This document shows, piece after piece, positions 2,357 through 33,080 of a stretch of DNA of 64,000 nucleotides; positions within the stretch are counted from its first letter, which is position 1, and every line of letters begins with the position of its first letter. The translations under genes and the position numbers were made by a program. The notes beneath the pieces are model-generated. The model made no database searches. It had not been told where the DNA came from and worked only from the letters and a program-made list of their open reading frames with translations. This DNA comes from Candidatus Gottesmanbacteria bacterium UBA6580 (GTDB lineage Bacteria > Patescibacteriota > Microgenomatia > UBA10105 > UBA927), in NCBI GenBank assembly GCA_002433895.1, contig DJJA01000003.1, forward strand, positions 175,788-239,787. The letters are read 5' to 3'.

Positions 2357-3484
2357 ATGATGCAAAAGGCAAAACAACATAGGTGGCTAAACGGATGGGT
2401 TATTCTTTTATTGTCGGCAGTAACGCTTGCAGCGGTTGGCGTTGGTGTGCTCTGGCTTGTCCGTGCCATGCGGGAGCCAGACGTGTATAAGCCAACGGGC
2501 ATGATCAATCAAGTATTTCCGGTACAAAAAAATGAGGAAGAAAATATTCATGTAAAAGAACCGGGCACGAGCGCGTTGTTGCCGGGTGCTAAGTGGGTAC
2601 CTCAAACATTTAATAACTGTGGTCCCGCCACGACATCCATGATTTTGCAGTACTTTGGTTTTGACGTCGGCCAGAATGAAACAAAAGCCAAACTGCGGAC
2701 CAATCCAGATGACACAAATGTGTTTACCTATGAGATAGCCGAGTATCTCAGGGATGATTTTGGTATTGAGTCGAAATTATTTTATGGGGGAGACATAGCG
2801 TTACTAAAAAAGTTGGTTGCGAATGGATTTTATGTCGTGGTCGAGGATTGGTTGCACCCCAACGAAGATATTGGGCACGTCACGATTATCCGGGGGTATG
2901 ACGACGAGCAAGGGGTGTTTATCGCAGACGATTCGTATATCGGTGTGAATATTACCTATCCCTATGAACAGTTTGCCAAGACACAGTGGAAAGCATTTAA
3001 TTACGAATATTTGCCGGTATACCGGCCGGGAAGCGAAGCGCTACTCCGGGCAATTGTAGGAGATGTATGGGACGAGACGATAATGCGTGAGAAAGCAGTC
3101 CGTATCGCGAGAAACGAAATCGCGCAGAACGAAAATGACATGTACGCGTGGTTTAATTTGGGAACCAACCTTTACGCGCTTGGCGATTATGCTGGGGCAA
3201 AACAGGCATTTGAGCGGTCGCAGTCTATCGGCTGGCCGAGAAGGATGCTCTGGTATCAGATACAACCGATACAGACGTATAACGAACTTGGTGAATATGA
3301 CACCGCAATAAAATACGCCAATATCGCGTTGTTGAGCAACGATTCATTCGCTGAAGCGCATCTGGAAAAAGCAATTGCTTATAAAGGTCTGGGAAATAGA
3401 GAGAAGGCGCGCGAAGAAGCAAACAGGGCGGTTTTCTTTTATCCGGAATTTAGTAAAGCGAAAGATTTTTTGGCAGCTTTATAG
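2357..3484 (+). CDS. Peptidase C39-like domain protein with C-terminal TPR repeats, N-terminal TM anchor
   Basis: The motif NNCGPATTSMILQYFGF matches the C39_2-like catalytic Cys region. The C-terminus has TPR-like repeats (AWFNLGTNLYALGDYAGAKQAFERS..., AEAHLEKAIAYKGLGNREKA). Confidence 0.5.
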   Translation: MMQKAKQHRWLNGWVILLLSAVTLAAVGVGVLWLVRAMREPDVYKPTGMINQVFPVQKNEEENIHVKEPGTSALLPGAKWVPQTFNNCGPATTSMILQYFGFDVGQNETKAKLRTNPDDTNVFTYEIAEYLRDDFGIESKLFYGGDIALLKKLVANGFYVVVEDWLHPNEDIGHVTIIRGYDDEQGVFIADDSYIGVNITYPYEQFAKTQWKAFNYEYLPVYRPGSEALLRAIVGDVWDETIMREKAVRIARNEIAQNENDMYAWFNLGTNLYALGDYAGAKQAFERSQSIGWPRRMLWYQIQPIQTYNELGEYDTAIKYANIALLSNDSFAEAHLEKAIAYKGLGNREKAREEANRAVFFYPEFSKAKDFLAAL

Positions 3485-14123: not shown

Positions 14124-14163
14124 GAAAAAAACAACGACCCTTTCGGGTCATCACTTTTTGTTG
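14124..14163. terminator. Bidirectional hairpin/T-run at left edge of low-GC island
   Basis: Hairpin GACCCTTTCGGGTC flanked by aaaaaaa on the 5' side and ttttgttg on the 3' side. Confidence 0.4.
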
Positions 14164-14309
14164 CTCCGCTCATCTAGGCTCATTTTACCAGCTATTGTAA
14201 TTAATCCTTTTGAGAATATTGCCTACATGAGAGAGTTAGAACAACGATAGGAGGAAATAAAAAGACATAACAGCTCAATTGTTGCCTCAGTAGGAGTATA
14301 ATTTAGATA

Positions 14310-15155
14310 ATGGTAAATATTAACGCACCAGGAATTGAATTTTTTGAGAGTTTCGCAAACGAGATTGAAAGCAAATTCCAACGCATAAAGACCCTTGTGC
14401 CTCATCGAGTTGCCTCTGGCAATTATCATGAGGAAATAATTAGAACTATATTGAGAAATTTTCTAACCAAGAGATATTCGGTTAAAACGGGTTTTATCTA
14501 TAAATCTAACAGCGAAATCAGCAGACAACTTGATATTCTAATCATTGATGAAGATTCTCCTGCCGCATATCTTTTTCAGGAGGGAGATTTTGCGATAGTA
14601 ATACCTGAAGCAGTCATGGCCGTCCTTGAAGTAAAAACAACGCTAAATGCTCCAGATTTCGATGAGGCTTTAGAAAATATCGCTTCTGCGAAAAAACTGA
14701 TGAGGTTCCCAGCTGCAGCAACGGGAATTATTTTTGGCTACGGTGGCACCTCCCCAACAGATAATAATCTTGATAGATGGTACAAAAGGGCGACCCCATC
14801 ATCTTTTAGTGAGAGTGAGAAAAATTTACTTGGACCAAATGCCGTCATGTTTTTTACTGCCGGCTGCTTGCTTGCTCGATACACAGAAGAAGGCAAATGG
14901 GAAAGTGGGGGCAAGTACTATCACAAGCTATTTAGAGACGATTCAGTTAAAAAATCTCCCAGCGATGTGGCATGGCAACTATCTGTCATACTAGCGATGA
15001 CAATTGCTGCTTGTGAAAATGGAGAGATGAGCAGAACTCATATGTTTCCCGCAGGCTATGCGGACAGGCTTATCCAAAGTGAGGGTGGTATGATTAGCCA
15101 TTCAAGATTTGCATTTGGAGAGGGCCTTTCAAGGAGAGAATATGCCTCTCGCTAG
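14310..15155 (+). CDS. PD-(D/E)xK-like nuclease-fold protein resembling the DUF6602 family
   Basis: The N-terminal third reads GNYHEEIIRTILRNFLTKRYSVKTGFIYKSNSEISRQLDILIIDEDSPAAYLFQEGDFAIVIPEAVMAVLEVK. This gives D...(E/D)...EVK spacing typical of restriction-endonuclease-like folds, and matches the DUF6602 signature as I recall it. TATAAT lies 7 nt upstream of the ATG, suggesting a leaderless transcript. The gene is low GC, about 36%. Confidence 0.45.
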   Translation: MVNINAPGIEFFESFANEIESKFQRIKTLVPHRVASGNYHEEIIRTILRNFLTKRYSVKTGFIYKSNSEISRQLDILIIDEDSPAAYLFQEGDFAIVIPEAVMAVLEVKTTLNAPDFDEALENIASAKKLMRFPAAATGIIFGYGGTSPTDNNLDRWYKRATPSSFSESEKNLLGPNAVMFFTAGCLLARYTEEGKWESGGKYYHKLFRDDSVKKSPSDVAWQLSVILAMTIAACENGEMSRTHMFPAGYADRLIQSEGGMISHSRFAFGEGLSRREYASR

Positions 15156-15439
15156 TTACAGACATCCTTAATAACATTTATTAAGGAAATTATTGTTGCA
15201 ATAGTAGAGATTATTGTAAGCACTAATAACCATTTGTTGGTATTACTAGCTTGCCTTTCTAAACTTACTTGATGCATTGCTAATCGCTTAATCAAATGTT
15301 TAATAATATCCAGGTTCTGTTTTTCACCTGCCGGAGTTTTAGGTATAGTATTGGCCTCTCTAATAGCATCCTTTATAAGCTCATCTGATTTTTTGAATTT
15401 TTCTAGGTAGGCTTCTTTTTCGATGTCTTTTTCGTTCAT
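15152..15439 (-). CDS. Small tail-anchored membrane protein (95 aa)
   Basis: Probable start MNEKDIEKEAY at 15439, 5 nt after the stop of the upstream ORF, with AGGA 14 nt upstream. Helical N-terminus and a single C-terminal TM (WLLVLTIISTIATIISLINVI). Confidence 0.4.
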   Translation of the reverse strand: MNEKDIEKEAYLEKFKKSDELIKDAIREANTIPKTPAGEKQNLDIIKHLIKRLAMHQVSLERQASNTNKWLLVLTIISTIATIISLINVIKDVCN

Positions 15440-15443
15440 ATAA

Positions 15444-15908
15444 TTATTTAATCCTGCAAATGTTGCATAAATATGGAAAAATGTTATCAATAAGTGTTAT
15501 CAAATATATTACTATAAATATCCAAATTACTATAAAAGACGCAATTTTTGTATTAATAAAAGCCTCGTTTTTGATTTTATGTATTAAACCTTCAACAAAG
15601 GGATTAATCTGATTTTTATGCCCATGCTTATCTTCAATTGTTCTTGCTAAATCAGTCCAAAACTTAGTCCACATAAAGCCTCTCTTTGTCATTTGAAGCC
15701 ATAGTAAACACAAAATTATTCCTAAAGGGGGAAGAATTTGTTTAACGAGAATTGGAACATTTGAGTTAGGGTTAAGCGTAAGACCAATTAAGGTCATAAA
15801 TATTGTATTTACAACAAGCATTGCATTGTAGCGCTCCCACTGGATTTGTGACTCAGCAATACGCATATTTATATAAGCTTCGTATTCAGACTTAGAGCTA
15901 TTTTTCAT
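15444..15908 (-). CDS. Small 3-TM membrane protein (154 aa)
   Basis: Start MKNSSKSEYEAY at 15908. Three hydrophobic helices. About 30% GC. No homolog recognised. Confidence 0.4.
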   Translation of the reverse strand: MKNSSKSEYEAYINMRIAESQIQWERYNAMLVVNTIFMTLIGLTLNPNSNVPILVKQILPPLGIILCLLWLQMTKRGFMWTKFWTDLARTIEDKHGHKNQINPFVEGLIHKIKNEAFINTKIASFIVIWIFIVIYLITLIDNIFPYLCNICRIK

Positions 15909-15945
15909 ATCAAAAACCACAAAAAACCTGCATCGGGGCAGGTTA
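15909..15945 (-). terminator. Possible minus-strand intrinsic terminator
   Basis: Hairpin AACCTGC-atcggg-GCAGGTT (15925-15944), followed on the minus strand by the U-run ttttttgtggttttt. This would stop read-through from the hsd/CBASS operon, running antisense across the HTH gene. Confidence 0.3.
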
Positions 15946-16153
15946 TATTAAGGCCAGTTTGCTCCCTAGCCCTAAGACTATTATACTGCCTAATTTTAAA
16001 GCTATTTTAACAGCGATTACTAACTCCGCTTATATGGGTGAGATGCGTGCTAGGTGGAACGAAATTAAAAAGTTACGCCAAGAACCAAAATTAGCACTAC
16101 AAGCTAGTATTTGAGGCTAAAGTTGGACAGATTGGACACATATAAAAAAGGCT

Positions 16154-16573
16154 ATGGCAAAACGAAGTGAAATTAAGGAACAACAGGAAAAGTTTATAGC
16201 TGAATTTAAAAGCCTACGCTCGGCCGGTAACGTGTTGGTTGCCTGTCAAACCCTAGGTTATGCGCGTAGCACTGTGTATCATTGGCGAATAATTGATGAG
16301 GGGTTTGCCCACCTTTGGGATGAAACGGTGCTTGATGGATTTGACATACGTGCCGATGAAGCTGAAAACGCCCTACGGTTAGCAATTACCAAAGACCGTA
16401 ATATCACTGCCATTATTTTTACCCTTAAAAACTTACGGCCAGACAGATATAGGGAAAGGTTTGACGTTGAGTATAAAGGTAAGATTGCAAACGAACTAAA
16501 GCAGAACTTTTTAGCTACTTTAAGTAGATTGGGGAAAAATGCTGATGAACAATTACGAAGGAAAAAAATATAG
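16154..16573 (+). CDS. HTH-domain protein (terminase-small-subunit-like or transposase-like HTH)
   Basis: The N-terminus KEQQEKFIAEFKSLRSAGNVLVACQTLGYARSTVYHWR shows the pattern of phage TerS/HTH_Tnp-type helix-turn-helix. It is the only plus-strand gene in a run of minus-strand genes. AAGG is 4 nt upstream of the ATG. Confidence 0.35.
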   Translation: MAKRSEIKEQQEKFIAEFKSLRSAGNVLVACQTLGYARSTVYHWRIIDEGFAHLWDETVLDGFDIRADEAENALRLAITKDRNITAIIFTLKNLRPDRYRERFDVEYKGKIANELKQNFLATLSRLGKNADEQLRRKKI

Positions 16574-16590
16574 CAACGAATATAGGACCC

Positions 16591-17184
16591 CTATTTTTTA
16601 GTAAACACTAATTTACCCCTTGTTTTCCTGTTTTCATCATTGGAGTAATATCCCTCAAGTTTCTTGTTATTTATTACATCTAAATATGTAAAACCCTCGT
16701 GCATACCACCAGATACTGAGTTAAGTAAGGTTTTTGAGCGAGCCTTACTCCGATAAGCATAAACTAAAAACCATTTACCATTTTCCTTTTGTTTGAGCCT
16801 AGCAAAATAACTTTCAAAGTCTGAACTATTGCCAAAGTCACCTTCAATGTATAAGGTTGAGTAGCTTTGAGTTATTGTAGCGATACCTGAGCCCTTTTTG
16901 CCATTATTAAATGTACTTTCATATTTTATTTGCCAACTACCAGTTAATACTGGGTACTCATAAAAACCGACTAGTTTACACAACAAAAATGCCAACCATT
17001 GTTCTTTCCAAAGCCATTTATCCCAAGCGTAATATAACCCATAAATTATGAAGCTCACAGTTCCAACTGACGCAATGAATGAAGCAATGCCATTTCCTAA
17101 AATCCCCCCTATCCATTTAGCTATAACTTGGATTAACGCAACTAATATTACGATTGAGGTGATGTATTTTTGTTGATCTTTCAT
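16591..17184 (-). CDS. 2-TM plus C-terminal beta-rich domain protein, candidate Cap15-like CBASS effector
   Basis: 197 aa. It has two N-terminal TM helices (ITSIVILVALIQVIAKWIGGILG..., ASVGTVSFIIYGLYYAW) and a roughly 130-aa beta-rich C-terminal domain. It overlaps the upstream nucleotidyltransferase gene by 4 nt. Confidence 0.45.
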   Translation of the reverse strand: MKDQQKYITSIVILVALIQVIAKWIGGILGNGIASFIASVGTVSFIIYGLYYAWDKWLWKEQWLAFLLCKLVGFYEYPVLTGSWQIKYESTFNNGKKGSGIATITQSYSTLYIEGDFGNSSDFESYFARLKQKENGKWFLVYAYRSKARSKTLLNSVSGGMHEGFTYLDVINNKKLEGYYSNDENRKTRGKLVFTKK

Positions 17185-18020
17185 ATATTAAAAAATTGGC
17201 GAAAATAACTGTTTGCTAACGTTTCCGACGTTGCCCTTGCCGCGGCATTTAATTGTGGCAACTTATTGGCAATATGTTGCCTGAAGGCTATAAAACTTTG
17301 AGGAGACCATTCATTTTGTGAAATAACTATTTTATCCCCTGCAACAGTTGTGAATGTTGAAACGAAACTTTGACCAACCATATGGCTAAGTATGTTATTT
17401 AGCGAATACGCTAAGTCATTACCAAATGAATTGTCTGTATAGCTATAAACTAAACACTCAATATAAAAAGATGGGGCAATGTTTTTTAAGTTCCAATTAT
17501 TAACATAATTTTTCAACATTCTTACTAACTTTTTATAATTGTTGTTTGTACGCTGGTTTTTAGCTTGCCCGTTAGCAAGATGGGTCTTGGGATAGTTTCT
17601 TATGCTTTGAGCGATAATCAGTGGTTCCCTGTATTGATTAAGTTGAACAGCTGTGGACCTTATTGCAGGAACGATATCTGCTTGTTTGGTATTAAGGTTT
17701 ACTGTTAAACATTTATGACCAATTGTTACCATCCCCATATAGTTTTGATTTGCTTCCAGTTTATTTTTAATGTCATAAAAAAGGTTGCTCGGCTGACTTG
17801 AGCCTGTTAATAGGCTCATAAGTGGGTTATGAACGGCAACTATGTCAACATCGTTAATATCGGATATCGCTGTATCATTAGCGTAGCTTCCTTGCAAAAA
17901 AGTTTCGTAATTCGGTAAAAGTGCCCTAATGTTGTTGTGAAGGGAAGATATATCGGTCATTGTGGTTTGTGAAACCCCGCTTGAAACCTGACTAATTAAT
18001 CCTTGTGATACGTACGACAT
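17181..18020 (-). CDS. CD-NTase/SMODS-like nucleotidyltransferase (candidate cyclic-oligonucleotide synthase)
   Basis: GS...DxD Pol-beta NTase motif (LQGSYANDTAISDINDVDIVAV). A third acidic residue sits in hDhVPa context (KQADIVPA) about 55 aa later. There is a downstream helical region (YKKLVRMLKNYVNNW). 279 aa. The start lies 1 nt after the hsdS stop. Confidence 0.5.
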   Translation of the reverse strand: MSYVSQGLISQVSSGVSQTTMTDISSLHNNIRALLPNYETFLQGSYANDTAISDINDVDIVAVHNPLMSLLTGSSQPSNLFYDIKNKLEANQNYMGMVTIGHKCLTVNLNTKQADIVPAIRSTAVQLNQYREPLIIAQSIRNYPKTHLANGQAKNQRTNNNYKKLVRMLKNYVNNWNLKNIAPSFYIECLVYSYTDNSFGNDLAYSLNNILSHMVGQSFVSTFTTVAGDKIVISQNEWSPQSFIAFRQHIANKLPQLNAAARATSETLANSYFRQFFNI

Positions 18021-18021
18021 A

Positions 18022-19251
18022 TTAGTTATTAAATGTTTTAGCTAAAACTGCTTGGGTTAGTTTTGATACCTTTGCTTCCGCGGCCTCAATTTGCTTTTCA
18101 ACTTTATCTGCAAGCTCAAAATAGCTTTTTACCCTTTTTACTATTTCCTTCTGTTCTTCCAGAATTGGAATTTCAATGGGCAAGTTTCTCAAATCCTCCA
18201 AGTTTATCCCTGTATATGCAACTCCCTTCTGTACGTTTGCTAGCCAATATTGTGAAACAGTTGACCCAATATAATATGCGATAAAATCTGGGAAAACTTT
18301 GCTTTTATCTACTGGGACTACTGCTACCTCGCGGGAAACGTTCCATCCCTTCATTTCAGTTGGGACAGCCACGACACCACCTAGCGTTCCACGCACGTTA
18401 ACCAATACCTCACCGCCCATTAGTATCGTCCTTGAGTAACTTGACGATAAAGTAGGTGAAATTCGTTTTAGTCCATTTAATTCAAAATTCAACCATCGGA
18501 CATTACTTGTTCTAAGACACGGAGTCCCATCTTCAATATGTTCTCCCAACTTAATCACACCATAACTTATACCTTTACCTTTTTCGCATAATTCACCCAA
18601 TGCTTTATTTGCCCATACACTATTTAAGTCTTTTATCGTTGACAGCTGTTTCTTCCGCCAATCCTCGGTAAGTTTTCCGGTAATCGCCGCAGTTAAAATT
18701 GCTTGACGAAAATTATTGAGCTGATTTTTAGCACTAGTTAACTTACTAGCAGTTTTATGGATTGAAATAATTTGGTTATTCAGTAAATCGGCAATTTTAT
18801 TTTGAGTTGTTACATCTGGCAACTTTATTGGGATTGTTTTCATTGCAGATTGTGTTAGTTTCAATCTGGTTGTACCTGCAACATAGTCACTAAAATCAAA
18901 ATAATCCAAGTAGTATTTAATAAACCGATTATTTGAAATATCTTTTCTTGCCCTTAAAACGTGTGCGTGATTATTTACCCAACTTTTGCCGTTGATTATG
19001 TACGCGATTGGCTTGGATTTATCCAAAAAGGGGGCGCCATCTTCGCCCAGAAGCACCAATTCCTCATCAAAAATATAATCGTTAATCCAACCTACCTGAC
19101 CTGTTGCTCCATAATAGGGTACCTCACCAATTCTTTTACTTCTGTCATTTGAGTTAATTGGCACCCTTTGGCCATCTAAAATATCAACACAATCTTTAAG
19201 TTGGTATTCCTTCCAACCATTGTTATTTAGTACCGTCTGTGAATTCTGCAT
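18022..19251 (-). CDS. hsdS: Type I restriction-modification specificity subunit HsdS
   Basis: Two target-recognition domains are separated by the conserved central helix (NKIADLLNNQIISIHKTASKLTSAKNQLNNFRQAILTAAITGKL). The C-terminal conserved repeat is present (LEEQKEIVKRVKSYFELADKVEKQIEAAEAKVSKLTQAVLAKTF). Confidence 0.85.
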   Translation of the reverse strand: MQNSQTVLNNNGWKEYQLKDCVDILDGQRVPINSNDRSKRIGEVPYYGATGQVGWINDYIFDEELVLLGEDGAPFLDKSKPIAYIINGKSWVNNHAHVLRARKDISNNRFIKYYLDYFDFSDYVAGTTRLKLTQSAMKTIPIKLPDVTTQNKIADLLNNQIISIHKTASKLTSAKNQLNNFRQAILTAAITGKLTEDWRKKQLSTIKDLNSVWANKALGELCEKGKGISYGVIKLGEHIEDGTPCLRTSNVRWLNFELNGLKRISPTLSSSYSRTILMGGEVLVNVRGTLGGVVAVPTEMKGWNVSREVAVVPVDKSKVFPDFIAYYIGSTVSQYWLANVQKGVAYTGINLEDLRNLPIEIPILEEQKEIVKRVKSYFELADKVEKQIEAAEAKVSKLTQAVLAKTFNN

Positions 19252-20644
19252 ATATTTTTTCCAAGCTATGTGTAGCTTCCTTTAGTTCAGACAGTACGCT
19301 TTTAATAAGTTCTTCAGGTTTGCCAATATCATCACCATTTTCAATATCTTCGTCTTTAATCCACTTAAAACCATCCAACTTGTAATGCTTTTCTTTAACC
19401 TGAGCGATGGTAAACATTTTCCAACGATTTTCTTTGGAGTCAGCTTCTTTACGCGGTGATTGACCATTAGGATTGTCGCCGTAACACTTTTCAAACCCCT
19501 CAAAATGTTTGTGGGTTAGCGGCCTATCTTTAACCGTTATTCCCGGTACATTAGTGCGCGCATCATAAATCCACACGTTTTCCGTGGGTATTCCTTTGGT
19601 AAAAAACACTACGTTGGCTTTAACACCTTGGCTATAAGGGGTAAACGTACCGTTAGGTAAACGTAAAATTGTGTGCAGGTTGCAATCCTGCATCAAAATC
19701 TTAAACACTTCTGCCGCTTGGTCGCCGAAAAGCACGTTGTCGGGCAGTACAACCGCCGCACGGCCTCCCGGTTTAAGGATGGTAAGGATATGTTGCGCGA
19801 AGTTTAGCTGTTTATTGCTTGTTGCAACGGTAAAGTCCTGCCGCTCCGGTACTTGGTTAGCCCCCTTAGTGCCAAATGGCGGGTTTGTCAGTACCACATC
19901 GTACCTGTCACCGCGGTCAGGCTCATAAATGCTGTCGCCTAATCGTATGTTGGAAATAATACCGTGCAGGTATAGGTTCATTAACGCTAACCTGCGTGGC
20001 CTTGCTACTAGCTCCGTGCCATAATAAGTTTTTTCCCTTATACGCTTAATGTCTTCGCGGTTAATTGCACCTTTGCTTTGGTGCATTAACCACTCATAGG
20101 CGCTTAACAAAAATCCACCTGTACCTGCGGCTGGGTCACATATCGTAAAGTCTTTTATTTCCCTTGGGTCGGGTTTCATTACATTGACTATTGCTTGGAT
20201 TAGGACACGGGGAGTGAAGTATTGCCCTGCGCCCTTTTTACCCTCGGCGGCTGATTTTTCTAGTAAACCCTCGTAGGCTTGGGCTTTAACATCAATGTTT
20301 AACCCCGACCAATCAATTTCATCAATAAGGTCAATCAAACGTTTAAGGTTTACTGGTTTGGTGAACTTAGATAGCGCTTCAACAAAAATCGCCCCAAGTA
20401 AACCTTCTTGTCGTGCTAAACCACGCAATAGCTCACTATAAAAATCAATTAACTCAGTGCCAGATTTGGATTTAAGCACTTCCCACGAGTACTTCTTAGG
20501 TATGTCTGCACCCTTTTCCTCCGCCATTTTCAAAAAAAGCAAATAGGTAAGTTGTTCCACATAGTCACCATAATCCATACCGTCGTGCCGGAGTACGTGG
20601 CAGTAACCCCATAATTTGTTAACAATGTTTGTATTAGTTTGCAT
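19223..20644 (-). CDS. hsdM: Type I R-M N6-adenine DNA methyltransferase HsdM
   Basis: LTNPPFGTK (NPPF motif IV), the SAM-binding motif CDPAAGTGGFL, and the HsdM N-terminal domain are present. Confidence 0.9.
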   Translation of the reverse strand: MQTNTNIVNKLWGYCHVLRHDGMDYGDYVEQLTYLLFLKMAEEKGADIPKKYSWEVLKSKSGTELIDFYSELLRGLARQEGLLGAIFVEALSKFTKPVNLKRLIDLIDEIDWSGLNIDVKAQAYEGLLEKSAAEGKKGAGQYFTPRVLIQAIVNVMKPDPREIKDFTICDPAAGTGGFLLSAYEWLMHQSKGAINREDIKRIREKTYYGTELVARPRRLALMNLYLHGIISNIRLGDSIYEPDRGDRYDVVLTNPPFGTKGANQVPERQDFTVATSNKQLNFAQHILTILKPGGRAAVVLPDNVLFGDQAAEVFKILMQDCNLHTILRLPNGTFTPYSQGVKANVVFFTKGIPTENVWIYDARTNVPGITVKDRPLTHKHFEGFEKCYGDNPNGQSPRKEADSKENRWKMFTIAQVKEKHYKLDGFKWIKDEDIENGDDIGKPEELIKSVLSELKEATHSLEKIYAEFTDGTK

Positions 20645-23336
20645 AGGCGTATACCTGTGGCATCGTCGTATTTAATTGGGTAATAAATGGCAACAATCTG
20701 TCGTCAAAATCCGCGTTAATACGCTTAAAACTTCCACCTAAATCTGTAAATATCGGCATTTCATCAAAGTCCTCCTTATCAATGGTTAAGTTTTCAGCCA
20801 AATGTAGTTTTATAAGCTCAATCCATTGTTCCTGTTTTTCATTTAACTTTTGTTTTCCAATAACCTTTTCAACCGCAAGGTCAACCCGTTCTTTGGCTGA
20901 CAATAACGGCTCGTCTTTGGCGGCGTGTTTGACCATTGAAATAATGTCTGCCAAGGGGTATTTATAAGCACGGCGCAAGTTGTCTTCAGTAAATCGCTCA
21001 GGTTGTTTGGATAGTGAGGTGCGCAATTCTGTTAAGGCTTTGGTATTCCACCCTTGGGGCTTACTTAACACAATGCTTATCGCCTCAATATGCTCGGGGT
21101 TATCTTTTACAAACCGCTCAAACTGTTTTAGGTAATCCTCAGGCTTTAGTTCGCGCCCGTCGGTGGTCCTAAAGACAAACTCGGATGTAACTGTGTCTTC
21201 CTGCTCAATCGCCCTTATAAAGCGTTTAGGCGGCCTTGGGTAGTTTTTAAGTAGGTCAATAAAGTTCGGGTCTGTCAGCGTCTTTAATGTGCCAACCCTA
21301 TCCTCACTCAACATATCCGGCAACTTTTTGGCAAACGCGCTTACATCCCCATCGGGTATAAAGTTGGCAAACATTTCCCGCCCTTCAGCGGTGGTATTTT
21401 TAGCAATGCGTTGCAGTCGTTTTACCAAACAGCGTGTGTTGTACTCAACCTCAATGTTGTCGTTTATAGCTTTTATAATTTCTTCAATACTTCTTGTTGG
21501 GTTGGTTGGTGTTACTTGGGTTATACCAGTGCTATTCTTAAATGCCTCAAGCAATGTTCCATCAAAACAATCAAACACGGTAAAGTGTGTTTTTGGCGGT
21601 GTTCCTAAACCGTTAGGGAAGTTTGTGCAAAGACGTGTACCGCGCCCAAGCATTTGCTCAAATAAGATACGGGACTTAACCGGCCGTAAAAACACGATGT
21701 TTTCAATTGAGGGTACATCAATACCGGTTGATAACATATCAACGGTAACTGCAATATGCGGTTCAGGTCTATTCCTAAACTCCTTTATGCGGGTTAATGG
21801 CCTATCCACGGTTGGTGAACCGGTAATTTTCTGTACAAAGGCATCCCCTCGGCCAAATGTATCGCGGCAAATATCAACTAACTGGTCGGCGTGTGAAGTA
21901 TGAGCTAAATCGTTATCAGCAAATATAAGCGTTTTGGGAAACCGGCCAAACTCCTTTTCCTGTTCCAAGGCATACTTAGCAAACTCCTGTATGATTTTGC
22001 GGTTGCTGTCTGGTGCTGTAATATCCCGTTCAACGTCAGCCACATCAAAATGTCGTTCGTCCTCCAATAAATCAAGTTGTTGTGCGCCGGTTTGTGTATC
22101 AACCTGTTCAACTTCCTCGCCTTCTTTTAGGGTAATGCCTTGTATGCGTACACCTGATGCTATCTTTACCGCGTCATAATCAACCAAATATCCATCTTGC
22201 ACAGCCCGCTCATAAGTGTAGCGGTATGCAATTTCCTTAAAGTAACTGGTGGTGTGGGCGGCAGGTGTAGCAGTTAAGCCTATCTTTGTGGCGTCAAAGT
22301 GGTCCAATACTCCGCGCCATTTACTTACTTCGTGGCTTGTATAACCCCTGTGGCACTCATCAGCAATAATCGTGTCAAACGCGTTAATCGGCATTTCAAT
22401 TTTGTCTGCATCATCATCTGGGTCGTAGTCGCCGCTATAACTAAACATACCCTCACGGCCATACAGGTTTATTTGCATCCGTTGGATGGTTGAAATATAC
22501 ACAAACACTTGGTTACCGTCAGGGTCAGTTAAATAGCCTGTGGGAATGACATTAAAATCAACCTTTTCATTGGCCTCAAAATCGTCTACCTTAAAACGTT
22601 GGCTATACACTTGGTAAATCTGGTTAAACTTTAGGCCGTTTTCGGCTTCATACGCGGCAAACTCCATTACTGCTTGGGCGGCAAGGGCTTTTCTGTCAAC
22701 CAAAAACAAAACGCGCTTACTAACACCGGACTTTAGCAGGCGGTAAACTAACGAGGCAATTGTGTAGGTTTTACCCGTACCGGTTGCCATAGCAATCAGC
22801 ATTGACCGTTTATTTTCAGTAATGTTTTTTTCAATCGCTGTTATAGCCTCACGTTGGTAGTGGCGGAGCTTACTATTGTTCGGTGGATTGGCAGTAAACC
22901 AACGTGCGTTACTTTGCGTGTCGCTAGTTAGGTACTCAATTAACGCTTTAGGCGTATGGAACTCCTGTACTTGGCGTGAGCGGCTTGGGGTAATGCGCAA
23001 ATCCTCATACCAAATAACTTCACCATTAGTGGAGTAAATAAACGGGACTGTTAAACCTTGTTGTTGTGCACCTTTAACATAACGATGGGCTTGCTGTAAG
23101 ACGTTTTGCGGACCAAGGCTTATCTTTTTTGCCTCAACAAACGCAATTAACTTACCATTTGCAAATAAGGCATAATCCGCCGGTCCGGTAGTGGTCATAT
23201 ATTCGGTAACCGCTACCTTATGCAAGGTTGAAGTATCCATCCCCTCCTTATAGGGGATTATCTTATCCCAACCAGCCTTTTTTAATTTATCGTCAATCCA
23301 CTTTTTACGAGTGGCTTGCTCGTCAATAATATCCAT
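20634..23336 (-). CDS. hsdR: Type I R-M restriction endonuclease/helicase subunit HsdR
   Basis: 900 aa. The N-terminal nuclease domain is followed by SF2 helicase motifs (MATGTGKTYT Walker A, DECHRG DEAH box). Confidence 0.9.
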   Translation of the reverse strand: MDIIDEQATRKKWIDDKLKKAGWDKIIPYKEGMDTSTLHKVAVTEYMTTTGPADYALFANGKLIAFVEAKKISLGPQNVLQQAHRYVKGAQQQGLTVPFIYSTNGEVIWYEDLRITPSRSRQVQEFHTPKALIEYLTSDTQSNARWFTANPPNNSKLRHYQREAITAIEKNITENKRSMLIAMATGTGKTYTIASLVYRLLKSGVSKRVLFLVDRKALAAQAVMEFAAYEAENGLKFNQIYQVYSQRFKVDDFEANEKVDFNVIPTGYLTDPDGNQVFVYISTIQRMQINLYGREGMFSYSGDYDPDDDADKIEMPINAFDTIIADECHRGYTSHEVSKWRGVLDHFDATKIGLTATPAAHTTSYFKEIAYRYTYERAVQDGYLVDYDAVKIASGVRIQGITLKEGEEVEQVDTQTGAQQLDLLEDERHFDVADVERDITAPDSNRKIIQEFAKYALEQEKEFGRFPKTLIFADNDLAHTSHADQLVDICRDTFGRGDAFVQKITGSPTVDRPLTRIKEFRNRPEPHIAVTVDMLSTGIDVPSIENIVFLRPVKSRILFEQMLGRGTRLCTNFPNGLGTPPKTHFTVFDCFDGTLLEAFKNSTGITQVTPTNPTRSIEEIIKAINDNIEVEYNTRCLVKRLQRIAKNTTAEGREMFANFIPDGDVSAFAKKLPDMLSEDRVGTLKTLTDPNFIDLLKNYPRPPKRFIRAIEQEDTVTSEFVFRTTDGRELKPEDYLKQFERFVKDNPEHIEAISIVLSKPQGWNTKALTELRTSLSKQPERFTEDNLRRAYKYPLADIISMVKHAAKDEPLLSAKERVDLAVEKVIGKQKLNEKQEQWIELIKLHLAENLTIDKEDFDEMPIFTDLGGSFKRINADFDDRLLPFITQLNTTMPQVYAYAN

Positions 23337-23350
23337 ACTTATTTTTATCT

Positions 23351-23548
23351 TTACTTTTTATTCTTATTTTCCTCAATGTAACGCTCAATGTCTTCCAATT
23401 TATAGCGCCTATCACCGACACCCCTGCGTGAACCAATACGGATGGAGGGCAATCGTCCTTCATTATCCCAGCGCCTTAATGTTTCGGGGTTTACGCCTAA
23501 AATATCAGCGGCTTGTTTAATTCTTAGTAGTTTAACGACCGGTTTCAT
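23351..23548 (-). CDS. Excisionase/MerR-family HTH DNA-binding protein
   Basis: LRIKQAADILGVNPETLRRWDNEGRLPSIRIG is typical of Xis/HTH_17 proteins. It ends 14 nt before the hsdR start. Confidence 0.6.
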   Translation of the reverse strand: MKPVVKLLRIKQAADILGVNPETLRRWDNEGRLPSIRIGSRRGVGDRRYKLEDIERYIEENKNKK

Positions 23549-23629
23549 AACTTACACATAATTATACATCGTCAGGCTTGTTTTTGCTCCTCCAAAATTC
23601 ACTTTTACTCCAGTAGACTGTCCTTCACT

Positions 23630-23827
23630 ATGAACTACAGGGATTTGATGGCGGAAGCACGGGCGATACATTTTGCTATGCACCACGGTAGCATTACCTA
23701 TGAGGAAGCACAGGTAAAAGTTAAGCCGGTTTTGGAAATACTAAATAGGAAGAATGCCAAGATAGCGAAAAGACACGGAGTAACCCCACGGAAGTTTACA
23801 TTCCAAAGCCTAGGACGAACTTTTTAG
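23630..23827 (+). CDS. Small hypothetical protein (65 aa)
   Basis: ORF only; divergent from the excisionase-like gene. Confidence 0.3.
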   Translation: MNYRDLMAEARAIHFAMHHGSITYEEAQVKVKPVLEILNRKNAKIAKRHGVTPRKFTFQSLGRTF

Positions 23828-24036
23828 AAAAACGTACTTAGGGATGTTTTTAATGCTTTGGCAATTTTTTCCAGCACCTCAAGGGATGGTGTGTACCTGC
23901 CTTGCTCAATATACCCCATATAAACACGACTGACATTAACTTTATCGGCTAAATCATTTTGGGTTAATCCGCACACCTTCCGCCTTTTTTGGATTTTTTT
24001 ACCTAGCACTTTTGGCAATCTGGCATTTTTCCGCAT
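23824..24036 (-). CDS. XRE-family HTH transcriptional regulator
   Basis: LTQNDLADKVNVSRVYMGYIEQGRYTPSLEVLEKIAKAL is a classic Cro/C1 HTH. ORF 23824..24072; the likely start is MRKN at 24036. Confidence 0.65.
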   Translation of the reverse strand: MRKNARLPKVLGKKIQKRRKVCGLTQNDLADKVNVSRVYMGYIEQGRYTPSLEVLEKIAKALKTSLSTFF

Positions 24037-24162
24037 ATTGTAATTGTGGAAAACGCATCGTCCATAATCCACTAAGCCAGACTAAGCATTTAGCCTTAAA
24101 AAGGGCTTGTTTTTATGCTAAGCATCATTTAGCATTATCTTATTGAGGCAAGGAGGTGAAAT

Positions 24163-24450
24163 ATGGACGTATTACTTAAAACAAGGTGTACCAAAGGCCA
24201 CTTAATCGTTTACGCAGATAAGGTTGCAATTGAAGCGCTTAAGCTACTTGGTTATCAACAATCAAACGCACTCGCCTACAAACAGATTACGGGAGTGGAA
24301 GTAAAAATGACCCAACCGGACATACTCGGCTTAGGACAAGCTACGGTAACTATCCATAGCGCTGGTGGCCAAACACTTATAGCTGACAGGGTAAAACTTA
24401 AGGATGCTAAGGAAGTTGAAAAACTAATCCAGGAACGAATTGCCAAATAA
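24163..24450 (+). CDS. Hypothetical protein (95 aa)
   Basis: ORF with RBS ggaggtg. No recognised domain. Confidence 0.35.
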   Translation: MDVLLKTRCTKGHLIVYADKVAIEALKLLGYQQSNALAYKQITGVEVKMTQPDILGLGQATVTIHSAGGQTLIADRVKLKDAKEVEKLIQERIAK

Positions 24451-24525
24451 TAGTGCGTAAATAAGCTCCATTCAATCGTATTCTTCGTCCGTTTTTCTTA
24501 TAATTGTCTTAATAAGGATAAAAAT

Positions 24526-25317
24526 ATGGATAAAAATGACCCTATCATTAGGGCGGAACTTGAGGAAATAAAAAATTGGCTAATAAAAAGTAGCGAGGTT
24601 GAAGTGGATGAAAAACAGGAATTGGTTGTTTCCATCGTTGCTTTAATTACAAACAAGCGGTTTCAACAAAACATACGACAATTACGGAAAAAATACCAAA
24701 TACCAAAGACTTGGTATACGACTGAAAAACAAAATGATTTATATGCTGAATACTTAAAACACTGCAAGGCACACCCCGACGCACCTACGATGCCGTACGA
24801 TGAACCAATTGTGAACCTGTGTAAAAGAATAGGCGTAGACGTAAAAAAGTACTCCGATTTTGTATTGGGCTATTTATACTACGGCTACGTTTTACCGCTT
24901 AAACCCGACCAAGTTGATTGGTATCAGCCGCTTTTTACAAAGGACGAGCATCGTTACAAAGCAAATATTGAGTTAGATTATGGGGACAGCACTGAGGAAA
25001 AGGAAGAAATGGAAATTAAAAAAGGCTATATACGATTTTACGGCGACACTACCCCCAATCAACTTACCCGCTTCATTAAGGATAATTGGCGGGGCATACA
25101 AGCTATCCAGTCACAACTTAAACCTTATCAGCACACGAAAAAACATAGTCAATTTAGGCGTGACATACTTATATATTTATTTCATTTGTTTGGGAATAAA
25201 TCGCCTGAAATAATGGATAAGATAGTCACAGACGAATTGAATTATCCCCTAGATTATGTTGAGGTACGGCAAATAATAAGTGATTTGAAAAATCGGATAA
25301 ACAAAATCCTTCCATAG
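24526..25317 (+). CDS. Hypothetical protein (263 aa)
   Basis: Long ORF in the island regulatory/replication module. No recognised domain. Confidence 0.4.
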   Translation: MDKNDPIIRAELEEIKNWLIKSSEVEVDEKQELVVSIVALITNKRFQQNIRQLRKKYQIPKTWYTTEKQNDLYAEYLKHCKAHPDAPTMPYDEPIVNLCKRIGVDVKKYSDFVLGYLYYGYVLPLKPDQVDWYQPLFTKDEHRYKANIELDYGDSTEEKEEMEIKKGYIRFYGDTTPNQLTRFIKDNWRGIQAIQSQLKPYQHTKKHSQFRRDILIYLFHLFGNKSPEIMDKIVTDELNYPLDYVEVRQIISDLKNRINKILP

Positions 25318-25536
25318 CTTCAGGTGTGAGTAAAACTCGTTAGGTTTTTCTTTATATTTTCCCCTCCATAAATCCGATACTGATGGTGTAAATCAGTATG
25401 GATAAACAGATAAACATCACCAATAAAGATAACAACATAACGCAAGCCGCAGAACAGTGGTTTAACCTTGCCCTAATGTTGATAAAGATTAAACGCCAAC
25501 AAAAGATGGCGCAATTAAAGATAAAGAATAACGACT

Positions 25537-25776
25537 ATGAGCACAGATAAAACTTTTCAAACTGATAACTTCTTATTAGCTACTTTCCTACTTAGTCAGT
25601 CGTGCAACCTCATTTCCATTGACCGCAGTAATGTTCGCCGTATGGTGTTTGCGTTTGAAAATAACTCCCGCCGAAAAACTTTAACTGAAGATTTTATGGC
25701 TTATAAAAGCGCCATTGAGCCACATAGGTTCTTTAGTGCACAGAAGGATTTACGCGCACTAATCCACCAAAGATAG
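25537..25776 (+). CDS. DUF5659-family small protein (common in phages/integrative elements)
   Basis: FQTDNFLLATFLLSQSCNLISIDRSNVRRMVFAFENN matches the DUF5659 N-terminal pattern (F.t.d..LA.fL...g..L..IDr.dp.r.vF.Fe). Confidence 0.45.
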   Translation: MSTDKTFQTDNFLLATFLLSQSCNLISIDRSNVRRMVFAFENNSRRKTLTEDFMAYKSAIEPHRFFSAQKDLRALIHQR

Positions 25777-25810
25777 GTTCAATCCAGTTGAATTAAAGAT
25801 AAAGATAAAA

Positions 25811-26242
25811 ATGAAAAATTACACGAAGATACCAAATGAAATATTAACTCAATCGCAACTTACCATACCAGCTAGGTACTTATACTGCGCATTGCTAAAG
25901 TATTGTGGCAATGACGATAAGTGTTTTCCAAGTCAGCAGACTTTAGGAAAAGACCTTGGAAGGACACCGCGATACGTTAGGGAATTACTAGGGGAACTTA
26001 TAAGCGCCGGTTTGGTTTATAAAAAAAGGCTGGGTTACAACAGGGCAAATACTTATACGGTATCCAAAGACTTAAAGACATACTGGAACCACGGTTCCTA
26101 TCATATCGGTACAGTATTTCCCCTCCATCAAGGAAATACAGTGCCAGATAAAAGTACTTATATAAAAGGAAAAGGTAAAAGGAGTATTAAGGGTTTGGAA
26201 AAAATGCGAAAAGCGTTAATTGAACAAAGGATTATTAAATAG
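25811..26242 (+). CDS. HTH_36-type winged-helix protein (replication-initiator/phage-regulator-like)
   Basis: IPARYLYCALLKYCGNDDKCFPSQQTLGKDLGRTPRYVRELLGELISAGLV is typical of PF13730. Confidence 0.5.
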   Translation: MKNYTKIPNEILTQSQLTIPARYLYCALLKYCGNDDKCFPSQQTLGKDLGRTPRYVRELLGELISAGLVYKKRLGYNRANTYTVSKDLKTYWNHGSYHIGTVFPLHQGNTVPDKSTYIKGKGKRSIKGLEKMRKALIEQRIIK

Positions 26243-26349
26243 GAGTTTACTTTTTATAAACGACTATTTACTATTGAATAATTAAGTATAATTAAATGTA
26301 ATACTATGAGGCAAGATATAAATTATAAATTATCCAACAAGGAGGAAAT

Positions 26350-27852
26350 ATGAAGGACGAAGTATATGTTTATATAAGGGTTTCAACGTCGGAGCAGGCA
26401 GACGAGGGGTTTTCTATTGATAACCAAAAACGAGCCTGTAAGGAGTTTTGCGAGGCACGAGGTTACCACATAAAGCGGATGTTTGTTGAGGATGGGCGAA
26501 GCGCTAGGACTACCGAAAGACCCGCTTTACAGGAAATGCTCAAGGCCTTGGTAGATACGCCAGTTGGCGCAATTGTTATTTATAAGATTGATAGATTTGC
26601 CCGTAACGTAACCGACTTTTCAAGGCTTTATAACGAGTTTAAGACAAAGGGAATACAGCTCATATCAGTAAGCGAGGGCAACTTAAGCGAGGGGACAAGT
26701 TTAGTGCCAAACATTTTTGCCAGTGTTGCGCAATGGGAGAGCGAAGTTAATAGTCAACGAACACGCGATGCGTTAATGCAAAAGTTTAGGGAAGGCTGGC
26801 AACCAACCCCACCCCCTATTGGGTATAGGAGTGTTGGCGCTGACAGGGAACGAAAAACTTGTGAACCAGACCCATACACTGCACCGATAATACGGGAGCT
26901 ATTTGAGCTATATTCAACCGGCAACTACTCAATTTATGAGTTACAAAATTGGTTAGCCGAACGGGATATTGTTAGTAAAACTGGCACACCCATAGGTCAC
27001 AGTGTAATTGGAACAATACTTAATAATCGGTTTTATTATGGTTGGATTAGCTGGCACGGTGAGGGGAAAACGGGCAAACATATGCCAATTATTAGTAAGG
27101 ACTTATTTGATACGTGCCAATATGTATTAGCAAAACACCGTAACTTCCTAACACGTAATCGCATTCACCAGTTTTTACTCCGCGGGTTCGTACACTGTGC
27201 TGAGTGTGGCCAACGATATACCGCGGAGTGGCATTTTAAGCCTAGATTTACTAAACGAAACGGCAAGATTGCTTATTACCATTGCCCCAAGATGAACCGC
27301 AATGGTTGCCCTGCGCCATACGTGGAGGTGGGTGATCTTGAAAAGTTGGTATTCGACACTGTAAAAGGTGTGCAATTTAGCCAAGATTTTATTGATGCTG
27401 TGGTTGATAAAGCGCGTAGATTTGTTGATGACAGTAGGAAGCGTGCAGGTGGCGATATGCAAGCGTGTATTAACCAGCGCACTGCACTTGAGTTTAAGCG
27501 CAACAAACTTGAAGACGCCTTACTAGATAACACGATTGACCGTACTGTTTTTAAGCGCAAGCACGATGAAATTGAAGCGCAGATTAGGTTAATTGACGAC
27601 CGAACACGCGAGATTGAAGCACAAAGTCACGTTGACATTAAACTTGTTGAGGACGTGCTTAACTTTACCCGCGATGTAGGCAGAACATACGACGAAGCGC
27701 CTGACTTTTTGAAACGACATTTTTTACGCTTCTTTTTTGAAAAGATAATGGTAAAAGATAAGAAGATAGCGGAAGTTATTTACACACCAATAATAGCGCC
27801 GTTAGTGGCAAACCACTCGGTTATAATAAAAAACCTTATGCTCCCCCGGTAG
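26350..27852 (+). CDS. Large serine recombinase (integrase)
   Basis: Resolvase catalytic domain (VYVYIRVSTSEQADEGFSIDNQ...IYKIDRFARN), recombinase domain, and a Zn-ribbon (CAECGQRYTAEWH...YYHCPKMNRNGC). 500 aa. The last 12 nt overlap the tRNA-Asn 3' end on the opposite strand. Confidence 0.9.
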   Translation: MKDEVYVYIRVSTSEQADEGFSIDNQKRACKEFCEARGYHIKRMFVEDGRSARTTERPALQEMLKALVDTPVGAIVIYKIDRFARNVTDFSRLYNEFKTKGIQLISVSEGNLSEGTSLVPNIFASVAQWESEVNSQRTRDALMQKFREGWQPTPPPIGYRSVGADRERKTCEPDPYTAPIIRELFELYSTGNYSIYELQNWLAERDIVSKTGTPIGHSVIGTILNNRFYYGWISWHGEGKTGKHMPIISKDLFDTCQYVLAKHRNFLTRNRIHQFLLRGFVHCAECGQRYTAEWHFKPRFTKRNGKIAYYHCPKMNRNGCPAPYVEVGDLEKLVFDTVKGVQFSQDFIDAVVDKARRFVDDSRKRAGGDMQACINQRTALEFKRNKLEDALLDNTIDRTVFKRKHDEIEAQIRLIDDRTREIEAQSHVDIKLVEDVLNFTRDVGRTYDEAPDFLKRHFLRFFFEKIMVKDKKIAEVIYTPIIAPLVANHSVIIKNLMLPR

Positions 27853-27912
27853 GATTCGAACCTACAACCGTCTTCTTAACAGGAAGCTGCGCTACCGTTG
27901 CGCCACAGGGGA
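27841..27912 (-). tRNA. tRNA-Asn (anticodon GTT)
   Basis: Folded by eye. Acceptor TCCCCTG/CGGGGGA (one G-U), D-arm GCGC-AACGGTA-GCGC, anticodon loop CTGTTAA (GTT), T-arm GTAGG-TTCGAAT-CCTAC, discriminator G. CCA is not encoded. Confidence 0.75.
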
Positions 27913-29509: not shown

Positions 29510-29544
29510 GACACAAAAACGCCAATATAATAAGAGGTGAGCTC

Positions 29545-32663: not shown

Positions 32664-33080
32664 TTATATTTTTATCCGGTAGCGCTTGATATTTGTTTTG
32701 CCGGATTTTAATTGCGTTTCTATAATAAGCGTGGCTTTCTGGATACCTCGATGCGGTGTGCACACTCCATGACTACAGGTGCCAAAGTAGAGGTCGCGGG
32801 AGTCAGTGACTCCTGATGGAACGAGAGAACCCATCGCTCCCTGTTCGATGCCGTTTGCGGTGTAGGAAAGCGTATAGGTGATACGCGATACATTCGTAAG
32901 ATTTACGAACGTGACCACAACACTATTGGTATTCCTGGAGAGCTTTGCTTTTGAATAACCACTCGTTACTGCCGAAGTGCTTTTGCTGCTCGTCGCGCGC
33001 ACCCGTGGCTTTGCGGCTTCAGCGTGGGGGGCAATTATTGTAAGCGATAGGGATACCAAGAAGAGTACAATAAACTTCAT
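32664..33080 (-). CDS. Secreted hypothetical protein
   Basis: Signal peptide MKFIVLFLVSLSLTIIAPHAEA. Beta-rich. Confidence 0.4.
   Translation of the reverse strand: MKFIVLFLVSLSLTIIAPHAEAAKPRVRATSSKSTSAVTSGYSKAKLSRNTNSVVVTFVNLTNVSRITYTLSYTANGIEQGAMGSLVPSGVTDSRDLYFGTCSHGVCTPHRGIQKATLIIETQLKSGKTNIKRYRIKI

Follow-up and report, generated by a model that had tools for sequence, protein, structure and literature searches.

A solitary NucC-fold nuclease and a chromosomal membrane-protein pair beside a tRNA-Asn integrated element in Candidatus Gottesmanbacteria

Introduction

Do three tightly packed genes next to a defense island constitute a defense system, or are they neighbors of separate origin? 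This question is raised by a locus in Candidatus Gottesmanbacteria bacterium UBA6580 (contig DJJA01000003.1), analyzed here within a stretch of 64,000 nucleotides (hereafter the window), in which the gene of a nuclease faces two tandem genes encoding small membrane proteins. The first-pass annotation had proposed a candidate three-gene anti-phage or toxin module. From the protein families, the predicted structures and the distribution of these genes among genomes, we consider it likely that the trio are neighbors and not a system, namely a stand-alone nuclease effector of the NucC family, a membrane pair belonging to the chromosomal backbone, and an island inserted alongside.

Three genuine genes in a convergent arrangement

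The three ORFs are all present with the positions and lengths first described. The nuclease (281 aa) is encoded on the forward strand (14310..15155), and the genes for a 95-aa C-tail-anchored small membrane protein (15152..15439) and a 154-aa three-helix membrane protein (15444..15908) lie on the reverse strand, both with an ATG start; a longer ORF with a TTG start extends the 95-aa gene to 15490, and an alternative GTG start for the 154-aa gene is found at 15920. The ORF map bears out the convergence of the nuclease on the two tandem genes, with stop codons overlapping by 4 nt (15152-15155). The close stop/start packing noted within the pair is also real: a 4-nt spacer separates the stop codon of the 154-aa gene (15446-15444) from the ATG of the 95-aa gene (15439), the same spacing is kept in the related loci L001 and L033, and the two genes are probably co-transcribed. 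The nuclease, being on the opposite strand, is outside their operon. All three genes are under purifying selection (pN 0.08-0.25 versus pS 0.61-0.79) and are thus real genes, not chance ORFs. Their GC contents (0.415 for the nuclease, 0.319 for the 95-aa gene and 0.303 for the 154-aa gene) agree with the AT-rich character attributed to the region. A promoter scan returned sites no more frequently than in shuffled sequence, and an NCBIfam search with the three proteins matched no family.

A PD-(D/E)xK endonuclease with the fold of NucC

The nuclease contains QLDILIIDE...AVLEVK, and the D...EVK core and DUF6602 identity read from this motif are confirmed by Pfam (PF20247; 87.1 bits, cut-off 27, residues 30-130). 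Residues D75, D80, E81, E107 and K109 show no variation across 45 homologs. In the sequence alignment the active-site residues D75 (14532-14534), E107 (14628-14630) and K109 (14634-14636, all on the forward strand) correspond to D73, E104 and K106 of Ec NucC, and they are also invariant in the joint alignment; the motif reads ID-x30-E[AV]K in NucC and LD75...E107-V-K109 in the nuclease. The trio had been said to match no named defense system, a statement that does not hold for the nuclease, which is matched by the PADLOC models of NucC (2.5e-22 and 3.7e-20) and by the CRISPR-associated PD_DExK model (1.8e-29).

The structural comparisons point in the same direction. A PDB sequence search with the nuclease retrieved NucC chains alone (residues 10-146), while in PHROGs its N-terminal half matches one family of unknown function and nothing else. 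The AF2 model (pLDDT 86.7, pTM 0.88) has the overall fold of NucC and also shows the embellishments that extend the restriction-enzyme core. In a Foldseek search with this model, the best 14 matches are all NucC (E 4e-12 to 1e-9), and the match ranked after these chains is BbvCI (E 0.016). The type II restriction endonucleases NgoMIV, SgrAI, Kpn2I and BbvCI show far weaker similarity to the nuclease than NucC does; unlike this group, it has the NucC-type embellishments and no nearby cognate methyltransferase. Taken together, these data show that the nuclease is a divergent PD-(D/E)xK endonuclease of the NucC/DUF6602 branch with its metal-binding/catalytic triad intact. It belongs to a subfamily of about 270-290 aa found mainly in CPR/Patescibacteria.

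A solitary and mobile nuclease

Full-length homologs of the nuclease occupy 22 distinct loci including the window, mostly in CPR bacteria; at 50% clustering, 88 clusters were obtained at E <= 1e-30, with about 20 full-length clusters, again mostly from CPR. Annotated plasmids and phages yielded no full-length close relatives, the matches being confined to the N-terminal domain. The nearest relatives in Vibrio and Shewanella (L026 and L027) match residues 5-122 only, at 50-53%; their interpretation as integron cassettes was rejected, attC-like repeats being absent.

Apart from the window and L001, the nuclease is solitary, and its neighbors include recombinases, type I RM (HsdR), an OLD/Gabija (GajA)-like ATPase-nuclease, a PifA-like NTPase and PDC-S39. 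An all-against-all BLASTP of neighboring ORFs for a conserved partner gave antisense artefacts and scattered recombinases only, and a tblastn search of window genes against the nuclease loci for a conserved backbone neighborhood recovered only island-type genes. The nuclease subfamily moves around as a lone gene, both on integrative elements and within defense islands. The presence of its homologs among defense and mobile genes makes an anti-phage role for the nuclease plausible, and this is the part of the proposed anti-phage or toxin function that survives.

The nuclease might instead have no part in immunity: it could be an orphan nuclease of restriction type or of selfish nature, or else an enzyme of DNA repair or recombination that is carried along by mobile elements. 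It does often adjoin recombinases or integrases, and it has no identified trigger or partner. However, no DNA methyltransferase adjoins it in the window or recurs among the neighbors of its homologs, NucC is clearly a nearer match to its fold than any restriction enzyme is, defense genes are frequent around it, and NucC and Damona, the two DUF6602 proteins known as tested, are both anti-phage; we thus regard a non-immune function as rather unlikely.

Damona is a DUF6602 protein of the Vibrio cholerae chromosomal integron that was tested as a single-gene anti-phage system (bioRxiv 10.1101/2024.07.02.601686). Like the nuclease, it stands alone, and it also matches the CRISPR-associated PD_DExK model, together with small CBASS endonuclease models. 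The comparison covers the shared domain and the architecture; the hosts differ, Damona being found in Vibrio and in Acinetobacter prophages and the nuclease in CPR bacteria.

The membrane pair without the nuclease

The predicted topologies of the membrane proteins are confirmed by their hydrophobic segments, of which the 95-aa protein has one at its C-terminus (72-90) and the 154-aa protein three (27-45, 53-71 and 122-140). The 95-aa protein has 26 homologs, with dN/dS of 0.04-0.1, and no significant match in Pfam, NCBIfam or PHROGs. The 154-aa protein matches the Pfam family 8xMP (PF24838; 1e-13, 51.7 bits against a cut-off of 30) over residues 7-140, corresponding to positions 2-132 of a 136-position model and hence to almost its entire length; all of its 22 homologs carry this domain. 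Pfam describes 8xMP as an "octameric membrane protein family", and a literature search with "8xMP" and "octameric membrane protein" returned nothing relevant to the family. The AF2 model of the 8xMP protein has a pLDDT of 87.7; a PDB sequence search was empty, and Foldseek gave no match at E <= 1e-3.

Could the nuclease, the 95-aa protein and the 8xMP protein nevertheless form one anti-phage or toxin-immunity module, in which the membrane proteins would serve the nuclease as sensors, effectors or immunity partners? The trio is kept as a collinear block in L001 (74% nucleotide identity), the genes are packed tightly by the convergent stop overlap and the short spacer, and in L063 an unrelated 91-aa tail-anchored ORF converges on the nuclease homolog, which leaves room for a loose, non-homologous pairing of the nuclease with small membrane proteins. 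Against this, the co-occurrence of the nuclease with the small membrane genes, proposed at the outset as a check of the module, is not conserved. The pair is present at two of the 22 full-length nuclease loci, the window and L001; among the homologs whose flanks are readable, the two closest, L063 (88%) and L002 (86%), lack it, and so do 18 further loci. Conversely, the 8xMP or 95-aa gene occurs in about 24 contexts besides these two, and a DUF6602 gene is found in none of them. The pair itself is not fixed, the partner gene of 8xMP being swapped between close relatives, and 8xMP is anchored to a tRNA gene in genomes lacking the island (see below), while the nuclease is encoded on the other strand. 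The three-gene module is largely refuted by this distribution, and we rate it as highly improbable.

The extent of the block shared by the window and L001 is exact (14269-15967, comprising the nuclease and the pair), with flanks that differ on both sides. Such a block could also reflect a mobile three-gene unit; the adjacency is best explained if the two genomes, which are related, inherited it from a common ancestor next to a hot spot of integration.

An element inserted between tRNA-Asn and 8xMP

The nature of this hot spot was revealed by the alignment with an empty site. In four other genomes (L033, L034, L042 and L053), a tRNA-Asn gene lies immediately upstream of 8xMP, and beyond this tRNA gene L053 and the window share synteny. 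In the window the two are separated by an integrated element of 11.9 kb (15961..27839), delimited by the empty-site alignment with L053, the junctions and tblastn synteny. The sequence GGGAGCA occurs twice, at 15961-15967 and at the 3' end of the tRNA (27840-27846), and the integration site is the tRNA-Asn (GTT) gene itself, which was located by ARAGORN on the reverse strand (27840..27912). A large serine recombinase (26350..27852, forward strand; Pfam Resolvase, Recombinase and Zn_ribbon_recom) ends at this gene. According to Pfam and PHROGs, the cargo further comprises a TerS-like HTH protein, a type I CBASS, a type I RM system and a replication-initiator-like HTH protein. The CBASS (16591..18020, reverse strand) consists of a CD-NTase (17181-18020) and a Cap15 2TM effector (16591-17184), identified by Pfam SMODS and Cap15_CD_rec and by the PADLOC cyclase and 2TM effector models; the NCBIfam CBASS cyclase models match the CD-NTase below their cut-offs.

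With the boundary at 15961, all three genes lie outside the island in which they had been placed, and the insertion of the element between tRNA-Asn and 8xMP explains why they looked like its left end. Just upstream of 8xMP, a scan and the L053 alignment identified a terminator-like hairpin (15925..15944, reverse strand), which is probably the original terminator of the tRNA-Asn gene because it matches the sequence following this gene in the island-free L053. The membrane pair is thus chromosomal backbone downstream of tRNA-Asn; what counts against this reading is the GC content of the pair, 0.30-0.32, far under that of the backbone (0.45-0.48).

Divergence from the cA3-controlled NucC

NucC (PDB 6P7O, 6P7P, 6Q1H, 6UXF and 7ZGV) is the cA3-activated endonuclease of type III CBASS and of type III CRISPR-Cas. 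Does the nuclease share its mode of control? The two proteins have in common the DUF6602 N-terminal half, and genuine NucC genes are named either "NucC" or "DUF6602 domain-containing protein" by PGAP. The nuclease is about 35-40 residues longer and its C-terminal half cannot be profile-aligned to that of NucC: the hhalign profile-profile alignment ends at residue 135 of the nuclease and 132 of NucC, and an alignment restricted to the C-terminal halves is non-significant (prob 1.3%), its path leaving LPIPHAGGTYPAKPL unmatched.

Three features of NucC are each individually essential for activation by cA3: the gate-loop residues H136/Y141, Y81 and T226. The gate loop, a stretch of 14 residues (P133-L146) latched by H136/Y141, closes over cA3. 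Under our preferred alignment about 2 residues of the nuclease occupy its position, and at this region the AF2 model places a helix (114-128) followed by a strand (138-146). The nuclease appears to be devoid of a gate loop; our confidence in this assignment is moderate because it relies on predicted secondary structure, the C-terminal alignment is non-significant, and MAFFT offers an alternative in which GYGGTSP of the nuclease is paired with HAGGTYP of NucC. The adenine-stacking Y81 corresponds to S83 in the nuclease and the stacking residue is thus not retained, the nearly invariant Y87 close by being able to replace it only with a shifted loop. Finally, the C-terminal GTVPxID motif, which contributes the T226 side chain and the V227 carbonyl, is invariant in five NucC proteins; nothing similar occurs in any of the 150 best representatives, and the motif is absent from the query family alignments. 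What is retained from the cA3 pocket is the phosphate-binding R53 (R55 in the nuclease). This arginine is invariant in every DUF6602 protein compared, and it is therefore not discriminating for cA3 binders.

The conservation of R55 and the presence of a type I CBASS 1.4 kb away make some nucleotide control of the nuclease possible. It could act as an effector of the NucC type under the control in trans of a cyclic oligonucleotide, and hence as a second CBASS effector beside Cap15, the messenger being supplied by the neighboring CD-NTase, about 2 kb from the nuclease, or by a cyclase elsewhere in the genome. Its fold is nearest to that of NucC, which itself serves two signaling systems, CBASS and type III CRISPR. 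The nuclease differs from NucC, however, in that its gene shows no linkage to a cyclase among the homologs (no CD-NTase or Cas10 is found among the top 25 recurrent neighbor families listed for 18 homolog loci) and in its occurrence mainly in CPR bacteria, whereas the five genuine NucC genes compared all adjoin CBASS genes or annotated likely counterparts. Moreover, the CBASS was brought in by an element that integrated separately and does not include the nuclease, nothing conserved corresponds to H136/Y141, Y81 or T226, and the remaining arginine is common to all DUF6602 proteins compared. Such control in trans seems to us improbable.

Discussion

The proposed three-gene defense system should leave the lists of candidates, its apparent unity being an artefact of the insertion of an island beside conserved backbone genes. 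The remaining interest lies in a compact, well-conserved nuclease with the NucC fold, apparently without the signaling features of NucC, which moves alone through the defense islands of CPR bacteria. NucC passes from a homotrimer to a hexamer upon binding of cA3. By analogy, the nuclease may be a self-contained DNA endonuclease effector with an architecture like that of single-gene Damona, its activity probably restrained by its oligomeric state; a phage-dependent cue other than NucC-style capture of cA3 would release it, and the released enzyme would then cut DNA non-specifically. A more specific proposal, which we put forward only tentatively and would not yet favor, is that the whole lineage consists of gate-less, cyclase-independent relatives of NucC acting as autonomous single-protein anti-phage nucleases, in which the diverged C-terminal half may be another sensor or self-inhibition device replacing the cA3 pocket. 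Such a lineage, if real, would be a natural comparison for the gain or loss of second-messenger control in the NucC fold.

If the nuclease protects on its own, a single-gene effector would join the very small defense repertoire known in CPR bacteria, the precedent of Damona would reach beyond Vibrio, and the structures of messenger-controlled and messenger-free forms of one fold could be compared directly. The cleanly mapped tRNA-Asn element is for its part a useful example of mobile defense cargo in reduced genomes. Its serine recombinase is 63% identical to that of a related tRNA-Asn island in L002, and it is within this island that one of the homologs of the nuclease resides.

Gene content and layout

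The three ORFs considered here, a 281-aa nuclease gene on the + strand (14310-15155) and two membrane-protein genes on the - strand encoding, counted from ATG, 95 aa (15152-15439) and 154 aa (15444-15908), lie where the first-pass annotation had placed them. The nuclease gene is convergent with the membrane pair, the stop codons overlapping by 4 nt, and the two membrane genes are in tandem as described, with a measured spacer of 4 nt that recurs in homologous loci of two other genomes (L001 and L033). A hydropathy scan agrees with the proposed topologies (one C-terminal hydrophobic segment in the tail-anchored 95-aa protein, three segments in the 154-aa protein), and the AT-richness of the region is likewise borne out, with GC contents of 0.415, 0.319 and 0.303 for the nuclease, 95-aa and 154-aa genes. 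Since orthologs of all three show non-synonymous divergence (pN 0.08-0.25) well below synonymous divergence (pS 0.61-0.79), these are real, selected genes. A strong, bidirectional, terminator-like hairpin of 15 pairs (14126-14159) is located between a PIG-L deacetylase gene and the divergent nuclease gene; a terminator is unexpected there, and the hairpin may be the trace of an old insertion boundary.

A NucC-like nuclease

The assignment of the 281-aa protein to the DUF6602 PD-(D/E)xK proteins is confirmed by Pfam (8.6e-25), and its first ~135 residues match the PADLOC models of CBASS NucC effectors (2.5e-22 and 3.7e-20) and a CRISPR-associated PD_DExK model (1.8e-29). NucC, the cA3-activated endonuclease of CBASS and type III CRISPR-Cas, was the only solved structure retrieved by sequence, both in a single-sequence search and with a 45-sequence profile. 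The AlphaFold2 model built on this 45-sequence alignment is confident (pLDDT 86.7, pTM 0.88), and a Foldseek search of the PDB with it gave NucC chains in the first 14 places (E 4e-12 to 1e-9), ahead of a match at E 0.016. The invariant residues D75, E107 and K109 align with D73, E104 and K106 of NucC. As judged from sequence and model, the protein has an intact PD-(D/E)xK active site within a predicted NucC fold.

The cA3 pocket of NucC consists of R53, Y81, T226 and V227, complemented by a gate loop and the latch residues H136 and Y141; mutation of any one of R53, Y81, T226, H136 or Y141 abolishes activation by cA3 (bioRxiv 10.1101/694703). Profile-profile alignment with the nuclease is confined to query residues 11-135 and NucC residues 9-132 (probability 98%). 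R53 is kept as R55, an arginine invariant across all DUF6602 proteins compared, and Y81 is replaced by S83. The GTVPxID motif, invariant in the five NucC compared, was found neither in the nuclease nor in any of the 150 best representatives. The gate loop comprises 14 residues in NucC, against about 2 in the nuclease between the end of the alignment and the next core strand. A profile alignment of the C-terminal part alone leaves this loop unmatched, but is itself not significant, and MAFFT gives a different pairing over the region; we therefore consider the gate loop to be missing with moderate confidence. The five NucC-type comparison genes, all from plasmids and 38-100% identical to E. coli NucC (two annotated as NucC, three merely as DUF6602 proteins), all adjoin genes annotated as CBASS cyclase, Cap6/Cap7, AAA ATPase, nucleotidyltransferase or ThiF-family protein. 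Among the recurrent neighbour families of the present nuclease (127 proteins from 18 loci, Pfam and PADLOC), neither a cyclase nor Cas10 was found. Activation in trans by a cyclic oligonucleotide is quite improbable for this nuclease.

Neighbourhoods of the nuclease homologs

The nuclease has some 120 homologs, of which nearly all span the full length; most come from CPR bacteria (Curtissbacteria, Levyibacteria, Portnoybacteria, Saccharimonadia). Among 1.84 billion representatives searched with a profile, 4944 matched at E <= 1e-3, 1770 at <= 1e-10 and 88 at <= 1e-30; some 20 clusters match full length, and a related subfamily of ~255 aa is also present. No close relative occurs in the annotated plasmid and phage collections searched. 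HMM searches of the 22 distinct loci with a full-length homolog, the window included, place the 95-aa gene and the 154-aa gene (Pfam 8xMP) beside the nuclease in the window and L001 only, L001 being collinear with the window across 14269-15967 at 74% nucleotide identity. The pair is absent from L063 (88%) and L002 (86%), which hold the nearest nuclease homologs with readable flanks, and an all-against-all comparison of neighbours found no conserved partner. Conversely, about 24 other contexts with the 8xMP or 95-aa protein all lack a DUF6602 gene. Both results argue against the single anti-phage or toxin module for which the first-pass annotation had put the three genes forward as a candidate: such a system is very unlikely to be real, and what remains of note is the nuclease alone.

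The immediate neighbours of the nuclease differ between loci and include type I restriction subunits (L003, L016, L024), an OLD/GajA-like ATPase-TOPRIM protein (L010), PDC-S39 (L017), a PifA-like KAP NTPase (L025), a mad8-like protein (L021), serine recombinases (L002, L015, L017, L020, L028) and tyrosine integrases (L011, L063). The nuclease is inherited singly and is associated with mobile and defence genes; that it has no role in defence is unlikely. In L063, a 91-aa tail-anchored ORF (2899-3174) not homologous to the 95-aa protein converges on the 88%-identical nuclease homolog, which may be coincidence or a loosely recurring arrangement.

The membrane pair and the tRNA-Asn insertion site

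The 8xMP protein is modelled as a helical bundle, and sequence and model (Foldseek) searches of the PDB found no solved relative. A tRNA-Asn gene lies directly upstream of 8xMP in L033, L034, L042 and L053; in L053, tRNA-Asn and, behind it, 8xMP come after homologs of window genes 33130-33765, 32664-33080, 30687-31223, 29500-30708 and 29033-29509. The L053 sequence past the tRNA 3' end (GGGGGAGCA|AAATAACCTTAATATAA...hairpin...ATG) corresponds to window 15960 down to 15901, whereas unrelated sequence follows the window tRNA-Asn (27840-27912). This identifies window 15961-27839 as an insertion of 11.9 kb, with the heptamer GGGAGCA repeated at both junctions; the three genes lie outside this island, not within it as had been proposed, and the pair belongs to the chromosome, as the conserved flank of the tRNA-Asn insertion site. 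8xMP does not always have the same partner: in some close relatives an unrelated 122-134-aa membrane protein takes the place of the 95-aa protein, and the latter has homologs at sites that lack 8xMP. The position downstream of 8xMP (L053:7470-7652, L065:681-1085, L057:7486-7854; window 15152-15439) holds either a 91-98-aa tail-anchored protein or the unrelated 122-134-aa one, which suggests a small variable slot beside a conserved gene. Although synteny marks the pair as backbone, its GC content is 0.30-0.32, against 0.45-0.48 in the surrounding backbone.

The insertion encodes a large serine recombinase, a TerS-like HTH protein (16154-16573), a type I CBASS (CD-NTase and Cap15), a type I RM system (Pfam), an unannotated 263-aa gene (24526-25317) and a replication-initiator-like HTH protein (25811-26242), a layout resembling that of a phage satellite with defence cargo. 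In L001 (1773-2734) the same GGGAGCA junction is found upstream of 8xMP, but the DNA beyond differs and includes a gene with a homing-endonuclease-associated repeat; different genomes thus appear to hold different insertions at this site.

A related element in L002 (2380-10433) shares with the window island its tRNA-Asn end and its recombinase (63% identity); CBASS and RM are replaced there by the DUF6602 nuclease and an 882-aa protein that matches nothing in Pfam or PADLOC. Directly upstream of the L002 nuclease come the distal-end sequence also seen in the window (TGCTCCC core) and a small ORF like window 15959-16114, both ORFs containing ..Y[MI]GEMR.RW.EIKKLR... Within this element the nuclease comes first among the cargo genes, an arrangement in favour of a stand-alone gene that is mobile and probably defensive.

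A candidate stand-alone effector

In the most likely mechanism, the nuclease would be a self-contained DNA endonuclease effector. Its oligomeric state or its diverged C-terminal half would keep it inactive until an infection cue, different from NucC-style capture of cA3, releases it. A precedent, likened by its domain and its description, is Damona, a DUF6602 anti-phage system from a V. cholerae integron for which no partner is described, in a study where most systems are single-gene (bioRxiv 10.1101/2024.07.02.601686). The literature searched contained no stand-alone NucC relative besides Damona.

Elsewhere in the window, ARAGORN predicts a tRNA-Ile with anticodon TAT (57441-57513), an anticodon uncommon in bacteria.
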